Shown in pieces: positions 1,909-30,914 of a stretch of DNA of 64,000 nucleotides. Numbering within the stretch: the first letter of the stretch is position 1; every line of letters starts with the position of its first letter. The position numbers and the translations under genes are program-made. The stretch spans positions 448,001 through 512,000 of the forward strand of contig JAWLHY010000003.1 of NCBI GenBank assembly GCA_041690135.1, written 5' to 3'. The notes under the pieces were generated by a model. It was not told the origin of the DNA and did no database searches. It saw only the letters and a program-made list of their open reading frames with translations. The stretch is from Armatimonadota bacterium (GTDB lineage Bacteria > Armatimonadota > SYMT01).

Positions 1909-2595
1909 ATGAAGATTCTACTAATCGAGGACGATGAGGTGATCTCGGAGTTGCTCCGCGAGGGACTGGAAGGGGCGCACTACGCGGTGGACGTGGCCAT
2001 GGACGGCTCCACCGGCCTGGACCTGGCCCTCCGGAACGATTACTCCCTCGTCATCCTCGACCTGATGCTGCCGGGCCGCGATGGCTGGAGCGTGTGCGAG
2101 ACCCTGCGACGACGCCGCAGCACCGTGCCCATCCTCATGCTCACCGCCCGCGACGCGCTGGACGACCGGGTCCGTGGCCTGGAGTTGGGGGCGGACGATT
2201 ACCTTACGAAACCCTTCGAATTCCGGGAGCTACTGGCCCGGGTGCGCGCCCACCTCCGGCGGGAACGGGTGCACCGGACCCGCGTGATCCGCATCGAGGA
2301 TCTGGAGATCGACACCGGCGCCCGTGCCGTGAGCCGCGCGGGGAAGGAGATCCATCTCACCCCGCGCGAATACGCCCTGCTGGAGGCGCTGGCCGCGAAC
2401 GAGGGCCGCACCCTCACCCGCGAGGAGATCCAGGAGCGGGTGTGGCACGACGAGGACAGCTACTCCAACACCGTCAGCGTCCATATCACCTCGCTGCGGA
2501 AGAAGATCGACTCCGGTTTTCCGGTCCGCCTGATCCACACCATTCACGGGGTCGGCTACACCCTGCGCGCTCGCGTGGAGGGAGAAGCGCCATGA
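1909..2595 (+). CDS. OmpR/PhoB-family response regulator
   Basis: REC domain (LIEDD, LDLMLP, ADDYLTKPF) plus winged helix (LTPREYALL, LRKKID, TIHGVGY). Confidence 0.95.
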   Translation: MKILLIEDDEVISELLREGLEGAHYAVDVAMDGSTGLDLALRNDYSLVILDLMLPGRDGWSVCETLRRRRSTVPILMLTARDALDDRVRGLELGADDYLTKPFEFRELLARVRAHLRRERVHRTRVIRIEDLEIDTGARAVSRAGKEIHLTPREYALLEALAANEGRTLTREEIQERVWHDEDSYSNTVSVHITSLRKKIDSGFPVRLIHTIHGVGYTLRARVEGEAP

Positions 2596-4046
2596 GGTGG
2601 CGGTCGTTCCGCGTGCGACTCACCCTCTGGAATGCCGGGGTCCTGGCGCTGGCGTTGACCCTCTTCGGCATGGTGCTGGTCTACAGCATGCAGGTCAGCA
2701 TGCTCCAGGTGATCGACACGGAACTCGCCGACCGCGCCGCGCGCTACGCCTCCGGGCGGCCGTTCCGGTTCCGCGGCTTCGCGGATGGGCCTCGTCGCGG
2801 GTTCCGCGGTGACTCTCCCCGTGCCGAGGCTAATGAAGAATCCGAACCCGACCTCGAACGCCTGATGGCGCTCCGCCGCCCTCGTTTTGTCGGCCCCGCG
2901 GGGCAGAGCCTCCGAACCGGGGGTGAGGACGCCTGGGACCCGGCCGCCGCCCGGGCCGCCTATGCGGGCGAGCGTCGCTACTCCATTGTCCGGTGGGAAG
3001 GGGAGCGGCTGCGCGTGCTGTCCGTCCCGCTCCGCCGCGGGAACGAGACCGTCGGAGTGGTCCAGGTCGCCCGCAGTCTTCAGGAGTTCGACGGCCAGCG
3101 CCGGCGGCAGCTCGCGCTGCTCCTGCTGCTGCTGCCGGTCGCGCTGTCCGTCGCCGTGCTGGGCGGTTGGCACCAGGCGAACCGCGCACTGCACCCCGTC
3201 CGCCGGGTCACGCAGGCGGCGGAGCAGATCAGCGCCGAGGACCTCTCCCAGCGCCTGGAGGTTTCCGGCGACGATGAGCTGGCGCGGCTGGCGCGGACCT
3301 TCAACGGCATGATCGCGCGTCTCGATGCCGCCTTCCGGGGCCGGGAAGAAGCGTACCGCCGGCTGGAGGCGGCTTACGAACAGCAGCGCCGCTTTACCTC
3401 CGATGCCTCGCACGAGTTGCGGACCCCGCTCACCCGCATCAAGACCAGCACCAGCATGGCTCTCAGCGAGGAGCGGTCCGCCCCCGAGTACCGCAAGGCC
3501 CTGGTGATTGCCGACCGCGCCGCCAACGGGATGCAGCGGATCATCGAGGATCTGCTGCTGCTCGCCCGCTCCGACGCGGGCCGCCTCGCTCTCCGGCTGG
3601 AAACGCGCGACATGGCCGAGGTGGTCCGGTATGCCCTGGCCCAACTCCCGGAAGACGCCGCCGGGCGGATCACTCTCGACCTGCCGGAGGAGCCACTCCC
3701 CGTGCGCGCCGATGTGCCGCACCTCGCGCGCGTTTTCGTCAACCTGCTGGAGAACGCCCTCCACTATACCCCTGCGGAAGGCGAGATCCGTCTTACCGCC
3801 CACCGCCGCGACGGCCTGGTGCGGGTCACCGTCTCCGACACCGGCTGCGGCATCGCGCCGGAGCACCTCCCGCACCTCTTCGAGCGCTTCTACCGCGTGG
3901 ACGCCGCCCGCAACCGCCGCGAAGGGGGTACCGGCCTTGGTCTCGCCATCAGCAAGAGCCTGGTGGAGGCCCATGGCGGCATCCTCACGGCCGACAGCGA
4001 GCCCGGCCGCGGCGCCACCTTCACCGTCTCCCTGCCTCTGGTGTAG
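2592..4046 (+). CDS. Sensor histidine kinase (2 TM, HAMP, HisKA, HATPase)
   Basis: ATG at 2592 overlaps the regulator stop (ATGA); SHELRTPL H-box, NLLENAL, DTGCGI, GGTGLGLAI. Confidence 0.93.
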   Translation: MRWRSFRVRLTLWNAGVLALALTLFGMVLVYSMQVSMLQVIDTELADRAARYASGRPFRFRGFADGPRRGFRGDSPRAEANEESEPDLERLMALRRPRFVGPAGQSLRTGGEDAWDPAAARAAYAGERRYSIVRWEGERLRVLSVPLRRGNETVGVVQVARSLQEFDGQRRRQLALLLLLLPVALSVAVLGGWHQANRALHPVRRVTQAAEQISAEDLSQRLEVSGDDELARLARTFNGMIARLDAAFRGREEAYRRLEAAYEQQRRFTSDASHELRTPLTRIKTSTSMALSEERSAPEYRKALVIADRAANGMQRIIEDLLLLARSDAGRLALRLETRDMAEVVRYALAQLPEDAAGRITLDLPEEPLPVRADVPHLARVFVNLLENALHYTPAEGEIRLTAHRRDGLVRVTVSDTGCGIAPEHLPHLFERFYRVDAARNRREGGTGLGLAISKSLVEAHGGILTADSEPGRGATFTVSLPLV

Positions 4047-4078
4047 CAGAGATGGTCGAATAACAGGCAATTACAATC

Positions 4079-4809
4079 GTCTCTGCGAGGAGGGGTAAAA
4101 CCCAGCCGACTTCACAGACCCTATGCTGCCACATTGCCGAAGCGCAGCGAGCCTGAACCTGCACCCGGCACCCGACGTGGCAGGCCCCCTGGTCAGGGCA
4201 GTCGTCGTTACACAGCAGTGGTAACCTCCTGCCAAACCGTGGCAACGTTCGGGACCAGAGCGTTGCCGGTTGGAGACAGCAGCCTGTTGGTGCGGGATCC
4301 AGGCCTCGCATCCACATACCAGGGGGATTGCCCTAGCTTCGCCGGCTAAACTGACGACCGACGATGCGGCGGACCACGGGCGGGTATTACCGTTCGGCAC
4401 GCTTGCAGCATCGCTCAGTGGCCGGCGTGGTCGGTCTCGCTATCACAGGAAAGCCTTTAAGGGGTCAGTGCAAGCAACTGAGCAGGTACGGTTTCCCAGA
4501 GGGAGGCCGCGCAAGCGCCGTCACTCCCGGCAAGCCTCGCAGAGCCGTGTGGAAAAACAGTTTCGTGGCGAGTGGCCAGCAACTGCTCAGTTCCTTCCCG
4601 CAACCCTGAGTCCCGAACGCTGCCAGGGTTTGGCAGCAGGCTACCCTATGCTACGCCGGGCAAACTCGCTTCCGTGTAAGGACAACTCCCCTGACCAGGG
4701 GGCCTGCCGCGTCGGGTATAGAGGTGTGACTTCAGAGCGGCTGTGCTTCGGCAGTGCGGCGGAGGGGTGTCGGGGAAGACGGTTGGCTCCTACCCCTCCT
4801 CGCAGAGAC
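4079..4809. repeat. Long imperfect inverted-repeat element with structured arms (candidate ncRNA pair or MITE-like element)
   Basis: 4079-4097 is the exact reverse complement of 4791-4809; 4171-4198 vs 4689-4716 match 27/28; 4229-4255 vs 4610-4636 match 25/27; located between two convergent genes. Confidence 0.85.
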
Positions 4810-4887
4810 AGCTAAAAACATCACAGTTAGAGTAGGTCGGGCCTCCTGACCAACACACGGTCCGTACCGGCGCAGAGACGCTCATGT

Positions 4888-6348
4888 TCAACAAGATCGT
4901 CCCTGCTTGGGCAACTCCGCGCCGTAGAGGCAAAGCTTCTCCACCTCCCCGTCCGCGTTCAGGCCGAAGGTGACCTGCGTTTCCACACCCGCATTCCGGT
5001 TGTGGGCGGAGAAGGTGTCGTAGTGCCAGTGGGCGAGGAGGAAGCGGAAGCTGCTCCACCGCAGCACCAGCTCTTCGCCTTCCAGCGCCACTTCCGCTGT
5101 GCCGTAGGCGTCGTCGCGGTAGATGCCCGTGTAGGCGGCAAGTTCCCGTGACGGGCGCGTATCCCGGTGGCGCTTCGCTTCGCTTTCCGCTTTCCGCTCT
5201 CGCTCCTCGGCCTCGGCGCGGTCCTGGAGATCCTTGAGCAGGCCGTTCCAGTCCTTCGGCGGCAGCCCCAGGAGGAGGTCGAGCAGGGTATTGCGCAGGG
5301 CCTCGTGCATCCGCGTGGGGCCCGCGTTGACCAGCACTGCGATACCCAGGTTAAGCGAGGGCACCAGGCAGACGGTCGACCGGAACCCGTCGATGGCGCC
5401 GCCGTGGGAGAGCATCTTCCGGCCCCGGTAATCCCACACCATCCAGCCCATGGCGTAGCTTTGCTGGGTGGTTTCGGTCAACTCGAAGGTGAGCTCGTCC
5501 AGATCCCCTTCGACCCGGATAACGATCTGGGGGGTGTGGGTCTCCTTCAGGGACTCAGGAGAGACCAGCCGCTTTCCCTGGAAGCAGCCACCCTGAAGCT
5601 GCATCCGCATCCAGCGGCCGAGATCCGCTACCCCCGAATTGATCGATCCGCCCGGGCCTTCCGCATCCAGCTCCAACCAGGGGATCGGCGCCAGCACACC
5701 CGCCTCGTTCTTGCGGTGGGGGCTGGCGTGGTCCGGAGCGCGCTCAGCGTCCTCGGAGCGGAAGTTGGCCCCCGTCATCCCCAGGGGATCGAAGATGCGC
5801 GCCTGGACGAACTCCTCCCAGGTCCCGCCGGTGAGGGCGCCCACCACCAGTCCGGCGGCCATGAACATGATGTTATTGTATTGATACTTCGCGCGGAGTT
5901 GGACGGTGGGCTGAACATAGCCGATGCGTCGAACGATCTCCTCCCGGCTCCAGGCGGACTGGTACCAGAGCATGTCGTTGCGGGCCATGCCGGTGCGGTG
6001 GGTTACCAGGTCGCGGACCGTTACCTGGGCGTCGGCCAGCGGGTCGGCCAGCCGGAACCAGGGGAGGTGCTTCCGAACGGGGTCGTCCCAGGCCAGCTTC
6101 CCTTCGTCCACCAGCATGGCCAGCGCTGCCGTCGTGAACGCCTTGGTCGTGGAGGCGATCCCGAACAGGGTCTCCGGCGTTACGGGCTCTCCGGTGCGGA
6201 GATCTCGTACCCCGTGTCCCTGTACGTAGAACTCCTCGTCGCCGTGGACCACCGCCACCCCGGCGCCCGGAACTCCCCAGAACTCCAGTCCGGCCCGTAC
6301 TGCCGCCTCCAGCGCCGCCGCGTTGGGAGACTCGTTTCGCTCCTGCAT
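4888..6348 (-). CDS. Serine hydrolase, beta-lactamase/AmpC-like family with C-terminal DUF3471-like domain
   Basis: SxxK (STTK), YNN and HGG motifs; C-terminal YTGIYRDDAYG; ATG at 6348 with ggagg RBS. Confidence 0.9.
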   Translation of the reverse strand: MQERNESPNAAALEAAVRAGLEFWGVPGAGVAVVHGDEEFYVQGHGVRDLRTGEPVTPETLFGIASTTKAFTTAALAMLVDEGKLAWDDPVRKHLPWFRLADPLADAQVTVRDLVTHRTGMARNDMLWYQSAWSREEIVRRIGYVQPTVQLRAKYQYNNIMFMAAGLVVGALTGGTWEEFVQARIFDPLGMTGANFRSEDAERAPDHASPHRKNEAGVLAPIPWLELDAEGPGGSINSGVADLGRWMRMQLQGGCFQGKRLVSPESLKETHTPQIVIRVEGDLDELTFELTETTQQSYAMGWMVWDYRGRKMLSHGGAIDGFRSTVCLVPSLNLGIAVLVNAGPTRMHEALRNTLLDLLLGLPPKDWNGLLKDLQDRAEAEERERKAESEAKRHRDTRPSRELAAYTGIYRDDAYGTAEVALEGEELVLRWSSFRFLLAHWHYDTFSAHNRNAGVETQVTFGLNADGEVEKLCLYGAELPKQGRSC

Positions 6349-6837
6349 GGTATTTGCTCCTCCGCTAACCCTATAAGACCCGTTCACGCTAACGGCTCTC
6401 CGCTCCTACTCGCCCTGGGATGCCGGAGGTGGGGCATCGTGTTCGCGAGTTCCACAGTCGTTGCGGGTGCGGTACCGGGTGCATGGCGGTGTTTGGTCAC
6501 CGTGATTGCGAGCGCCATGTCCGGTACGGGCGCGAACCGTCACCAGGGGCGTACACGGGTTGCACCCGATGCGCGTACCGTGACCGACGGGCATCGCCCA
6601 CACCCAGGGGGAACCCGGCACCCGCCCTCTGCTACCCTCCGCCTCCCACTTCTTTCCTGGCACTCTCTGTGCTCTCCGTGAGCTCTGGGGTGAGATCGGT
6701 TCGGCTGGGGTTATGCCGCGCAAATTTGACTGTGGCTCCAGCTCTCAACCGCTTTGCGGCCGAGCGTGGGATCATCCTCTGGGTCCAGAGTGAAACCTAA
6801 TCACCTCTCCGGTGTCCCAACTCCACAGTTATTGGGC

Positions 6838-30176: not shown

Positions 30177-30914
30177 TCACCGATTGTTCGTGTGAGCCGC
30201 GCCGTTGCGCCCGACGGGATGTCGCTTCCAGAGCCGCATGGTGCGGAGTTCACCGCGCCCCACGAGAAGACACGCCGCGGCCGTAACCAGGTAGAGGCCC
30301 AGGAGCAAGACCCACGGTCGCCCTTCCACCGCCGAGGCGCCGATACCGGCATACACCCCGGCGACCGGCACGGACCCGAGCAAGCTGCCGAGGGCGAACC
30401 GCGCGCCATCGAAGTGCGACGCCCCGGCGACGATCGCAACCGTCTCCGCCAGGAGGGGTAGCGGCCGTGAGAGGATGACGGCCGCTGTTCCCCACCGGGC
30501 CAACAGCGTGCGAGAACGGGACGCTTCCGGCGGGGTGATCCGCTGGAGGGGACCGCGCAGTCCACGTCCCAGCGAGAACGCCAGCATGGAGGCGGCGAAG
30601 CTTCCCAGCACGGAGAGTGCCGCGCCCGACCAGGGGCCGAACAGCGCCCCATTGGCCACCATTACCAGGCTGGACGGCACGGGCAGAACCACGTCCAGGG
30701 CAAGCAATAGAAGACTGGTCGTCGCGGTCGCGGGCCCGGCCTGTTTCGCCCAGGTCGTGGGGGCGAGGGCGGCTCCCACCCCGGCCGCTTCCAGTCCCAG
30801 GAAGAGCGCCAGCAGCACCACGGCTACTGAAGAAAAGAGGAGGGCCAGCCCTCCGGGTCGGAGAGCTGGCCGCATTCCATGATCGTGTATGGAAGTGCCG
30901 GGCCGCCGGGGCAT
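30177..30914 (-). CDS. DedA/VTT (TVP38/TMEM64) family membrane protein
   Basis: DVVLPVPSS, GALFG, RPLPLLAE motifs; start uncertain. Confidence 0.8.
   Translation of the reverse strand: MPRRPGTSIHDHGMRPALRPGGLALLFSSVAVVLLALFLGLEAAGVGAALAPTTWAKQAGPATATTSLLLLALDVVLPVPSSLVMVANGALFGPWSGAALSVLGSFAASMLAFSLGRGLRGPLQRITPPEASRSRTLLARWGTAAVILSRPLPLLAETVAIVAGASHFDGARFALGSLLGSVPVAGVYAGIGASAVEGRPWVLLLGLYLVTAAACLLVGRGELRTMRLWKRHPVGRNGAAHTNNR

Follow-up and report, generated by a model that had tools for sequence, protein, structure and literature searches.

What kind of element leaves a spacer without a gene but with exact inverted ends, internal hairpins and what look like compensatory base changes? The question is raised by positions 4079–4809 of a 64,000-nt stretch of DNA (hereafter the window) from an Armatimonadota bacterium (assembly GCA_041690135.1, contig JAWLHY010000003.1, positions 448,001–512,000). 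An earlier note, made from the sequence of the window alone, had described these 731 nt as two inverted, diverged copies of a structured noncoding module and had offered three interpretations: a pair of divergently transcribed small RNAs (sRNAs), orphan guide-like ends of an insertion sequence (IS), or a miniature inverted-repeat transposable element (MITE). Following up that description computationally, we could confirm the observation in part and support its interpretation in part. Our results indicate that the gap very probably holds a nest of three old, noncoding, nonautonomous repeats that landed independently between two convergent genes: a complete copy of one family, a copy of a second family, and a truncated, inverted copy of the first.

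The genome to which the window belongs (label G000) comprises 9.1 Mb in 25 contigs, has 65% G+C and is 97% complete. Contigs are labelled C1, C2 and so on; the window lies on C3, where C3:452266–452446 corresponds to window positions 4266–4446.

Composition of the gap

The gap (4047–4887) separates a histidine kinase gene (2094..4046, + strand; domains HAMP-HisKA-HATPase_c) from a gene for a beta-lactamase-fold hydrolase (4888..6387, − strand; beta-lactamase-fold/DUF3471). As the earlier note held, it has no credible open reading frame (ORF), with 0 of the 6 ORFs in the gap matching Pfam, and the 19-mers at 4079–4097 and 4791–4809 are exact inverted repeats; the small hairpins described in the arms are present as well. 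A repeat search resolved the inverted similarity into three collinear blocks over ~180 nt: 4079–4157/4731–4809 (79 nt, 75% complementary), 4170–4218/4669–4717 (49 nt, 88%) and 4220–4255/4610–4645 (36 nt, 89%). Similarity between the arms therefore ends at 4255/4610 and not at ~4290/4570, as had been proposed. The same search found the pairing 4472–4485/4583–4596 (93%) in the centre, so that an extra central pairing does exist but belongs to a second repeat family, separate from the arms.

BLAST of positions 4060–4830 against the genome of origin, a check that the earlier note had proposed, returned 80 matches, so the region is multi-copy; these matches cover two parts of the query, namely the arms and 4458–4606. 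We refer to the family represented by the arms as family A and to that of the centre as family B. An nhmmer model of the A head found 102 matches in the genome, 88 of which cover model positions ≤5 to ≥95, and a model of the distal part found 26, among them window positions 4266–4446. The left edge of the family is sharp at GTCNCTGCGAGGAGGGGTA, with unrelated DNA upstream in the 33 copies found by BLAST. Seven long copies, including the left copy of the gap (A#1), align over ~350–370 bp up to a shared tail whose sequence, ..CCGGYCTCGCAATGAC, is that of the head in inverse complement; across these seven copies, the terminal inverted repeats (TIRs) measure 12 bp and read GTCNYTGCGAGG ... CCTCGCAATGAC. 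Family B has 62 nhmmer matches in the genome, 49 of them full-length at 140–187 bp. Arms and centre are thus multi-copy, dispersed families with inverted termini, and the centre has an IS630-family parent, described below; among the earlier interpretations, the MITE or nonautonomous element is the one that our results bear out.

We propose that A#1, a complete ~370-bp copy carrying a 21-nt mini-insert, would have landed independently in the spacer, and that B would have moved by cut and paste into a TA within CTAG, through the DDE transposase of an IS630-family element that is single in the genome. The right copy (A#2) is a second member of family A in the opposite orientation, truncated at B. 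Family A itself would have been mobilised in trans. The features of the gap are collected in Table 1.

Table 1. Repeat-derived features of the gap, in window coordinates
Feature	Position	Strand	Basis
Leader upstream of the A#1 head (GGCAAT..ACAATC), weakly conserved	4062..4078	+	Information content increases between positions ~−20 and −1 in 82 heads, 67% of which have C at −1
Family A copy #1 (A#1), complete long form, head to tail	4079..4446	+	End-to-end alignment with 6 other ~350-bp copies; nhmmer head and distal models both match
A#1 head, left terminal repeat, identical to the inverted A#2 head	4079..4097	+	
GGCAGGCCCCCTGGTCAGGG hairpin module, near-invariant in family A and also found alone elsewhere	4179..4198	+	Family alignment; 16-mer has 88 genome matches at ≤1 mismatch
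Mini-insert, 21 nt, inside A#1	4333..4353	+	Gap here in 6/7 long-copy rows
A#1 tail, right terminal repeat, degenerate: TCTCGCTATCAC versus family ..CCTCGCAATGAC	4435..4446	+	
Family B copy, ~155 bp, IS630-type MITE with ~29-bp imperfect TIRs, ends TTAAGGGG...AACCCTGAG	~4457..4610	+	nhmmer C3:452458–452607, E 1.2e-38
Conserved core hairpin of B, 32 nt, CCAGAGGGAGGCCGCGCAAGCGCCGTCACTCC	4496..4527	+	Motif recurs in repeats beside a Y1 transposase-like gene
Family A copy #2 (A#2), head at 4809, truncated at ~family position 177 where B abuts	~4611..4809	−	No distal-model match on the − strand
Mini-insert within A#2, the second copy in the gap	~4644..4668	+	Gap here in 19/20 rows of other A copies

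Relationship between the two arms

Two inverted arms with exact 19-bp ends and collinear similarity over ~180 nt could also have been born in place, by inverted duplication of one segment into a local palindrome that diverged later. We consider this origin highly improbable. The arms are 74.3% identical over 145 aligned positions, and the median within family A is 73.6%. Each has nearer relatives on other contigs (best identity elsewhere in the genome 84.7% for the left arm and 79.9% for the right), and the opposite arm ranks only 20th of 29 for the left and 12th for the right. With closer relatives elsewhere in the genome, the arms must be two independent insertions and not the products of a local duplication; they are independent members of a family and not the pair that had been described. 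The left copy, moreover, extends to a full tail, of which the right copy has none, and the exact 19-mer is the most conserved part of family A.

Pairing and covariation

The interpretation that the earlier note favoured was a divergently transcribed pair of structured sRNAs, or one long hairpin RNA, with its helices under selection. The predicted fold is indeed strong: the 731 nt reach −429.9 kcal/mol on the + strand and −424.9 kcal/mol on the − strand, against shuffle averages of ~−314 and ~−308 (z = −12.9 and −14.3; 20 shuffles for each strand). This would favour an RNA, but the inverted repeat alone gives such a fold. The dispersed copies allow a more specific assessment, for which we used 30 of 37 fetched copies of family A, excluding 5 whose core holds an insert as well as 2 divergent ones. 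Of the 17 pairs that RNAalifold retained, 2 show a double change, and the covariation term is −0.48. The helix that contains the supposed compensatory swap from G-C to A-U is paired at 74.6% (+) and 79.9% (−) across the family, levels reached by 112 of 1000 and 59 of 1000 shuffles, respectively. The swapped column pair itself is mostly G-U or C-U (GU 10, CU 8, AU 4, GC 4, AC 2, CC 2), so that the compensatory change does not hold up once the whole family is considered.

It had also been argued that G-U pairs favour the outward-reading strands. The inner stem does favour the − strand, where it is paired at 86.6%, via 94 G-U cells, versus 52.7% on the + strand, which is a point in favour of an RNA; these levels are reached by 211 of 1000 (−) and 426 of 1000 (+) shuffles. 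Conversely, the head hairpin (96.3% versus 83.7% paired) and the GCCG/CGUGGC helix (97.5% versus 72.5%) both favour the + strand. Because strand preference conflicts between helices, the G-U case for one transcribed strand fails. Two further observations would suit an RNA under selection. Some hairpins are near-invariant, with CCCT/AGGG paired in 118 of 120 cells, and the head hairpin is slightly better paired on the + strand than in shuffles, of which 3 of 1000 reach it.

Family B gave a similar picture in the 40 of 49 full copies used. Its helices, a 27-bp terminal helix and two small hairpins with 37 pairs in all, are paired at 78.2%, compared with 32–52% when the partners are slid. This level is matched or exceeded by 372 of 500 shuffles, and the observed covariation score of 0.119 compares with 0.123 for shuffles. 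The four pairs kept by RNAalifold are invariant. A consensus of single-sequence folds gave no usable consensus structure, and a simple helix scan was too noisy.

Known RNA families do not account for the locus either. A search of window positions 3900–5000 against Rfam at E ≤ 1 returned only a 14-bit chance match, and a search of four copies of the A2 subfamily, two 3-kb loci with A1 copies, and the IS and Y1 locus discussed below returned only a sub-threshold match to a flanking terminator. Two candidates were considered and set aside: ar35 (28 bits versus a cut-off of 45), which corresponds to a terminator hairpin flanking another A copy, and a hammerhead-like string in the A2 subfamily, which has no Rfam support. 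The A arm was found by BLAST in 0 of 40 relatives.

Taken together, ~90 copies of A and ~50 of B, a median identity as low as that within family A, helices that conflict in strand preference and the lack of covariation above shuffles in the proposed helices and in B leave an sRNA pair or a long hairpin RNA very improbable, and copy number and lack of covariation have already largely ruled it out. Selection on RNA or single-stranded DNA (ssDNA) structure is likewise unsupported by our results. The locus looks structured because a head-outward pair of A copies was combined with hairpins inherited from the master copies of the families. On the sequence comparisons made here, pairing appears to be a property of those master copies, followed by random decay in the descendants with no selection in the copies. 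The apparent pair of structured noncoding RNAs, compensatory change included, is an artefact that arises when two diverged members of a single repeat family are compared.

Family B and its IS630-family parent

Family B shows the hallmarks of a DDE-mobilised element. Its ends, CTAAGGGG...CCCCTTAG, form imperfect inverted repeats of ~29 bp, and ORFs that overlap B have no Pfam match. Over 49 copies, the consensus flanks are C-TA...TA-G, placing the TA within CTAG, and two copies that lie inside other repeat families have uninterrupted paralogues that fit a TA duplication. Four DDE_3 matches were found in the genome, one of them within a 1223-bp single-copy element (C3:775041–776263) whose ends each match those of B at 22 of 29 positions (left end with the B 5′ end, right end with the B 3′ end) and which is flanked, like B, by C-TA...TA-G. 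It encodes, in different frames, a 189-aa helix-turn-helix (HTH) ORF (HTH_33/32/28/23/29) and a 240-aa DDE_3 ORF (65.7 bits, cut-off 28.6). It is therefore well supported that B is an IS630-type MITE that targets TA. B is also a chimera, because only its ends match the IS.

The interior of B has other affinities. Its 32-nt core has 94–97% matches in repeats on both sides of a Y1_Tnp gene at C9:14121–14351. At this locus (C9:13700–15520), a 182-aa Y1_Tnp gene (32.5 bits) lies between alternating repeat copies that bear the B core, in a REPtron-like arrangement. Quentin et al. 2018 (PMC6006769) describe Y1 'class 3' genes flanked by atypical structures, which the C9 locus may resemble by analogy. 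The central part of B also has 12 matches in the same-family genome G005 and 1 weak match in G006; BLAST with whole B against 40 relatives found the complete element in none and the central part alone in those 2 genomes.

The central hairpin occurs in three forms, a short one with a GCAA loop and forms longer by 17 and 34 nt (alignment columns 55–94; copies such as L040, L048 and L055). Judged from the alignment, these length classes look like nested insertion of a small palindrome. The hairpin stems differ between copies by compensating changes (CCCG/CGGG, CCCC/GGGG, CCCA/UGGG).

Ends, modules and distribution of family A

The putative mobility of family A is deduced from three features: the number of copies, the sharpness of the ends and the inversion of the termini. 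In the genome, 110 terminal 11-mers were counted, versus 24 for a control motif. A tail-like 11-mer follows 150–750 nt downstream of 19 of 88 heads, compared with 122 of 2000 random windows, and a search within 4 kb found nine head-tail pairs, 255–731 bp apart and none longer. Downstream of tail-less heads lie other modules, namely repeated GGCCCCCTGGTCAGGG hairpins and a hexamer-like module of TCCTTATCC type. The hexamer-like module CCTTATCCTTATC has 275 copies in the genome at ≤1 mismatch and is frequently interleaved with GGCCCCCTGGTCAGGG hairpins, spaced ~60–70 nt apart, downstream of A heads.

A looser scan found 82 heads in two subfamilies, the arm type (..GGGGTA..) and a GTCATKGCGAGGAGCGRT.. 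type. All of these heads have G at position 0, 99% have T and C at positions 1 and 2, and 67% have C at −1; of 29 tails, 90% are followed by G, and the resulting frame is CGTC...GACG. The weakly conserved leader upstream of A#1 (Table 1) may belong to the element itself or may reflect a preferred target. An empty-site search by upstream flanks gave a single ambiguous paralogue (C15 versus C21), which shares another A tail.

Heads of the GTCATKGCGAGGAGCGRT subfamily are directly preceded by tandem octamer arrays. These arrays, of TTCGGGTG and TTCAGGCA types followed by GGCAATGNCCACGATC, are found at C13:71700–71756, C2:1152532–1152726 and many other loci, and also near contig ends (C8:99–163, C16:99–145, C21:85406–85472). 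One array flank has 343 BLAST matches in the genome, and arrays this close to contig ends may break the assembly.

The mini-insert of 21–25 nt is present or absent within otherwise collinear A copies, in both orientations, and a 24-mer from it has 27 copies in the genome at ≤5 mismatches, mostly directly after CCAGGGGGNNTGCC. Besides the two copies in the gap (window 4333–4353 and ~4644–4668), the loci noted are C2:407147–407291, C7:277678–277822, C15:7982–8126 and C12:124003–124147. In appearance, the mini-insert resembles a very small insertion element with site specificity.

A third repeat family ends in CGGTCGGGGCTCGCAATGAC, a tail in common with A (C1:457047, C1:305378, C2:255484, C2:281737, C3:586685, C4:122895, C4:308813, C6:84633 and C12:67022); one complete copy measures 255 bp (C1:457047–457301). 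At four sites, an A tail is followed 33–37 nt on by another A head in the same orientation, with loosely similar spacers (C1:344524/344561, C1:933370/933333, C15:160809/160773 and C10:347450/347417); either A inserts beside A, or the boundary of the unit differs from that suggested by its inverted termini. Elsewhere in the window, at ~30442–30466 (C3:478442), GTCTCCGCCAGGAGGGGTAGCGGCC resembles an A head (the scanned 15-mer differs at 2 positions) but has no A body behind it, and it is probably a chance match.

A crude GC-frame gene caller, whose counts are indicative only, places most copies in spacers between called ORFs (30 of 33 for A and 39 of 49 for B); 3 copies of A and 9 of B overlap an ORF, and the remaining B copy is situated at a contig edge. 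The A copies occupy 10 convergent, 17 tandem and 3 divergent spacers, where spacer length predicts ~20%, 55% and 25%. In spacers between tandem genes, again roughly, 12 A copies run with the genes and 5 against them; for B, the numbers are 7 and 20.

Candidate enzymes for family A

One of the original proposals traced the arms to an RNA-guided IS, of which they would be orphan ends resembling guide RNAs (TnpB omega-RNA or IS110 bridge RNA). Such an origin would fit the fact that one end is sharp and the other ragged and that a conserved terminal motif abuts variable flanking DNA. The genome, however, has 0 matches to TnpB (PF07282) and 0 to the IS110 DEDD domain (PF01548), at 97% completeness and with control genomes that did give matches. 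A has inverted termini and a defined tail, and the Rfam searches gave no match. We therefore regard such ends as a most unlikely source of the arms.

A stronger contender, which bears on how A spread and leaves the composition of the gap unchanged, is that A resembles repetitive extragenic palindromic (REP) sequences or REPINs (REP doublets forming hairpins): it would be an ssDNA hairpin substrate of an HUH Y1 transposase of the RAYT (REP-associated tyrosine transposase) type, or of an enzyme recognising a CGTC palindrome, and not of a DDE transposase. In IS200/IS605 and REP biology, Y1 transposition leaves no target duplication, and none was seen for A. The CGTC...GACG frame is consistent with this account, as are the presence of 9 Y1_Tnp matches in the genome, several of them in genes flanked by their own repeat families, and the avoidance of divergent spacers (3 of 30 versus ~25% expected by length, with the crude gene call). 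The 18-nt head of A also opens a short palindromic repeat in many phyla, and CGTC-tagged palindromes without a dedicated transposase have been described (Di Nocera et al. 2013, PMC3733652). Against it, all 9 Y1 matches lie ≥1884 bp from any A-type end (0 of 9 within 1.8 kb), a result that also bears on the guide-like ends proposed earlier. In addition, A is ~350 bp long, and its head lacks the compact 8–9-bp stem, 4–5-nt loop and CCA tail of CGTC repeats as that paper describes them. On balance, a REP- or REPIN-like spread of A is possible but less likely than not.

Three Y1_Tnp genes have their own flanking repeats, with 22–39 BLAST copies each (C1:1171500–1173320, C2:54300–55200 and C11:209150–210660). 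The repeat family at C1:1172517 holds GTCCCGCTGCGAGGCGGG, which is A-head-like with a 2-nt indel; a distant link between the A ends and this Y1-associated repeat is possible, judging by that resemblance. Nine candidates for an autonomous partner from a relaxed search were examined; the best, on C11, holds DUF1501 and glycosyltransferase genes by Pfam and was rejected.

Relation to a cross-phylum palindrome

We scanned the 18-nt head pattern of A in one genome per species, 596 Gb in total, and found at least 121 stretches. By a rough calculation, chance could give a few hundred matches; those listed nonetheless form a family, because an inner arm and an inverted tail recur. Among 81 listed matches in 80 loci, the shared inner arm follows within 60 nt in 61 and an inverted tail within 220 nt in 45; the two occur together in 39. 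Hosts among the matches listed include Bradyrhizobium, Afipia, Mucilaginibacter, Chloroflexota and others, and the short palindrome is found among them in Alphaproteobacteria, Bacteroidota, Chloroflexota and other groups. Rfam searches at 12 of these public loci gave nothing above noise.

In the genome studied here, the pattern has 36 exact matches versus 0 for controls. The inner-arm 12-mer of the canonical palindrome occurs 2 times in the genome, and 0 of the 36 exact heads have the canonical inner arm or tail within 220 nt. Among 60 relatives, the pattern is found in 0 of 6 same-family genomes, 3 times in G017 and once in G028, and the 2 copies read in G017 are the canonical short palindrome. 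Family A thus has its termini alone in common with the cross-phylum palindrome. A literature search by the terminal 11-mers and by short peptide read-throughs, in which subscription literature was thinly covered, gave unrelated primers or nothing, and we know of no publication in which the palindrome is identified by its sequence.

A broader proposal is that A-type termini mark a cross-phylum family of mobile palindromic DNA moved by an enzyme yet to be found. In this genome, the family would have acquired a ~350-bp cargo and spread to ~90 copies, one subfamily of them behind octamer arrays, and the pattern of one fixed and one ragged end would reflect a one-ended or copy-out mechanism and not decay. 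We regard this proposal as speculative and rather unlikely.

Discussion

Our results support a model in which the gap is a nest of three independently acquired repeats, yet several observations weigh against that model or limit it. For family B, the empty-site comparisons involve diverged paralogues, in each of which one TA is mutated; the transposase of the parent is split over two frames and the element is single-copy, so that any present activity would be hypothetical; and the interior of B does not derive from that of the IS, only the ends being shared. For family A, 69 of the 88 copies lack a tail and run on into other repeat modules, which a simple cut-and-paste MITE does not explain. 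Both head subfamilies are weakly conserved at 1–20 nt upstream of the head, which makes the true left boundary uncertain. No direct repeat was found as a target-site duplication at the flanks of complete A copies, one pair of flanks being inverted instead. Strict and relaxed end-pair searches for an autonomous partner with A-type ends (a pair >731 bp apart within 4 kb) found none. Finally, the slight excess of pairing in the head hairpin on the + strand can be explained by relatedness alone but may reflect a real constraint.

We infer that family A was mobilised in trans. Because pairwise identity is only ~74%, the copies are best read as inactive relics. Any present effect of the nest is presumably incidental; for example, the long hairpin might serve the two convergent genes as a bidirectional terminator or RNA stabiliser.

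One implication is that diverged repeats inserted head-to-head can mimic a structured RNA with a compensatory change, and a false noncoding RNA candidate is hereby removed. For annotation, two repeat families (~90 and ~50 copies) are now defined by their coordinates and boundaries, one of them together with its parent IS, and can be masked or used as markers. Of wider interest, the termini of A are common with a short cross-phylum palindrome for which no transposase turned up here or in the accessible text of PMC3733652. Because such termini enclose a long element in many copies here, this genome is a sensible one in which to seek the palindrome's mobiliser.

Among known systems, the termini of A invite comparison with the CGTC-tagged palindromes of Di Nocera et al. 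2013 (PMC3733652). As described there, these are mainly alphaproteobacterial 20–40-bp stem-loops with an 8–9-bp stem, a 4–5-nt loop and a short CCA-like tail, and without a dedicated transposase. Compared with that description, A is alike in its outer (C)GTC, its inverted arrangement, its location mostly outside ORFs and the lack of a dedicated transposase found; it differs in the ~350 bp between its termini and in having neither a CCA tail nor a compact hairpin after the head. The inner arm of the canonical palindrome, moreover, follows 0 of the 36 exact heads here.

Family B corresponds closely to MITEs derived from IS630/Tc1-mariner elements. It is short and noncoding, has ~50 copies with ~29-bp imperfect TIRs and TA flanks, and shares its genome with an IS that encodes HTH and DDE_3 domains. 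It differs in that its interior is unrelated to the IS and carries a 32-nt hairpin core and in that its central hairpin comes in three length classes.

Very small dispersed repeats reportedly occur in cyanobacteria. The mini-insert is like them in being present or absent within collinear copies and in lying at a recurring short motif, and it differs in sequence and phylum.

Lastly, bacterial interspersed mosaic elements and REPIN doublets are mosaic repeat clusters. Although the units of the gap are ten times longer, belong to two unrelated families and include inverted units that form no co-evolving doublet, the gap as a whole recalls these clusters: several repeat units in alternating orientation occupy one spacer downstream of convergent genes and can together form a long hairpin.

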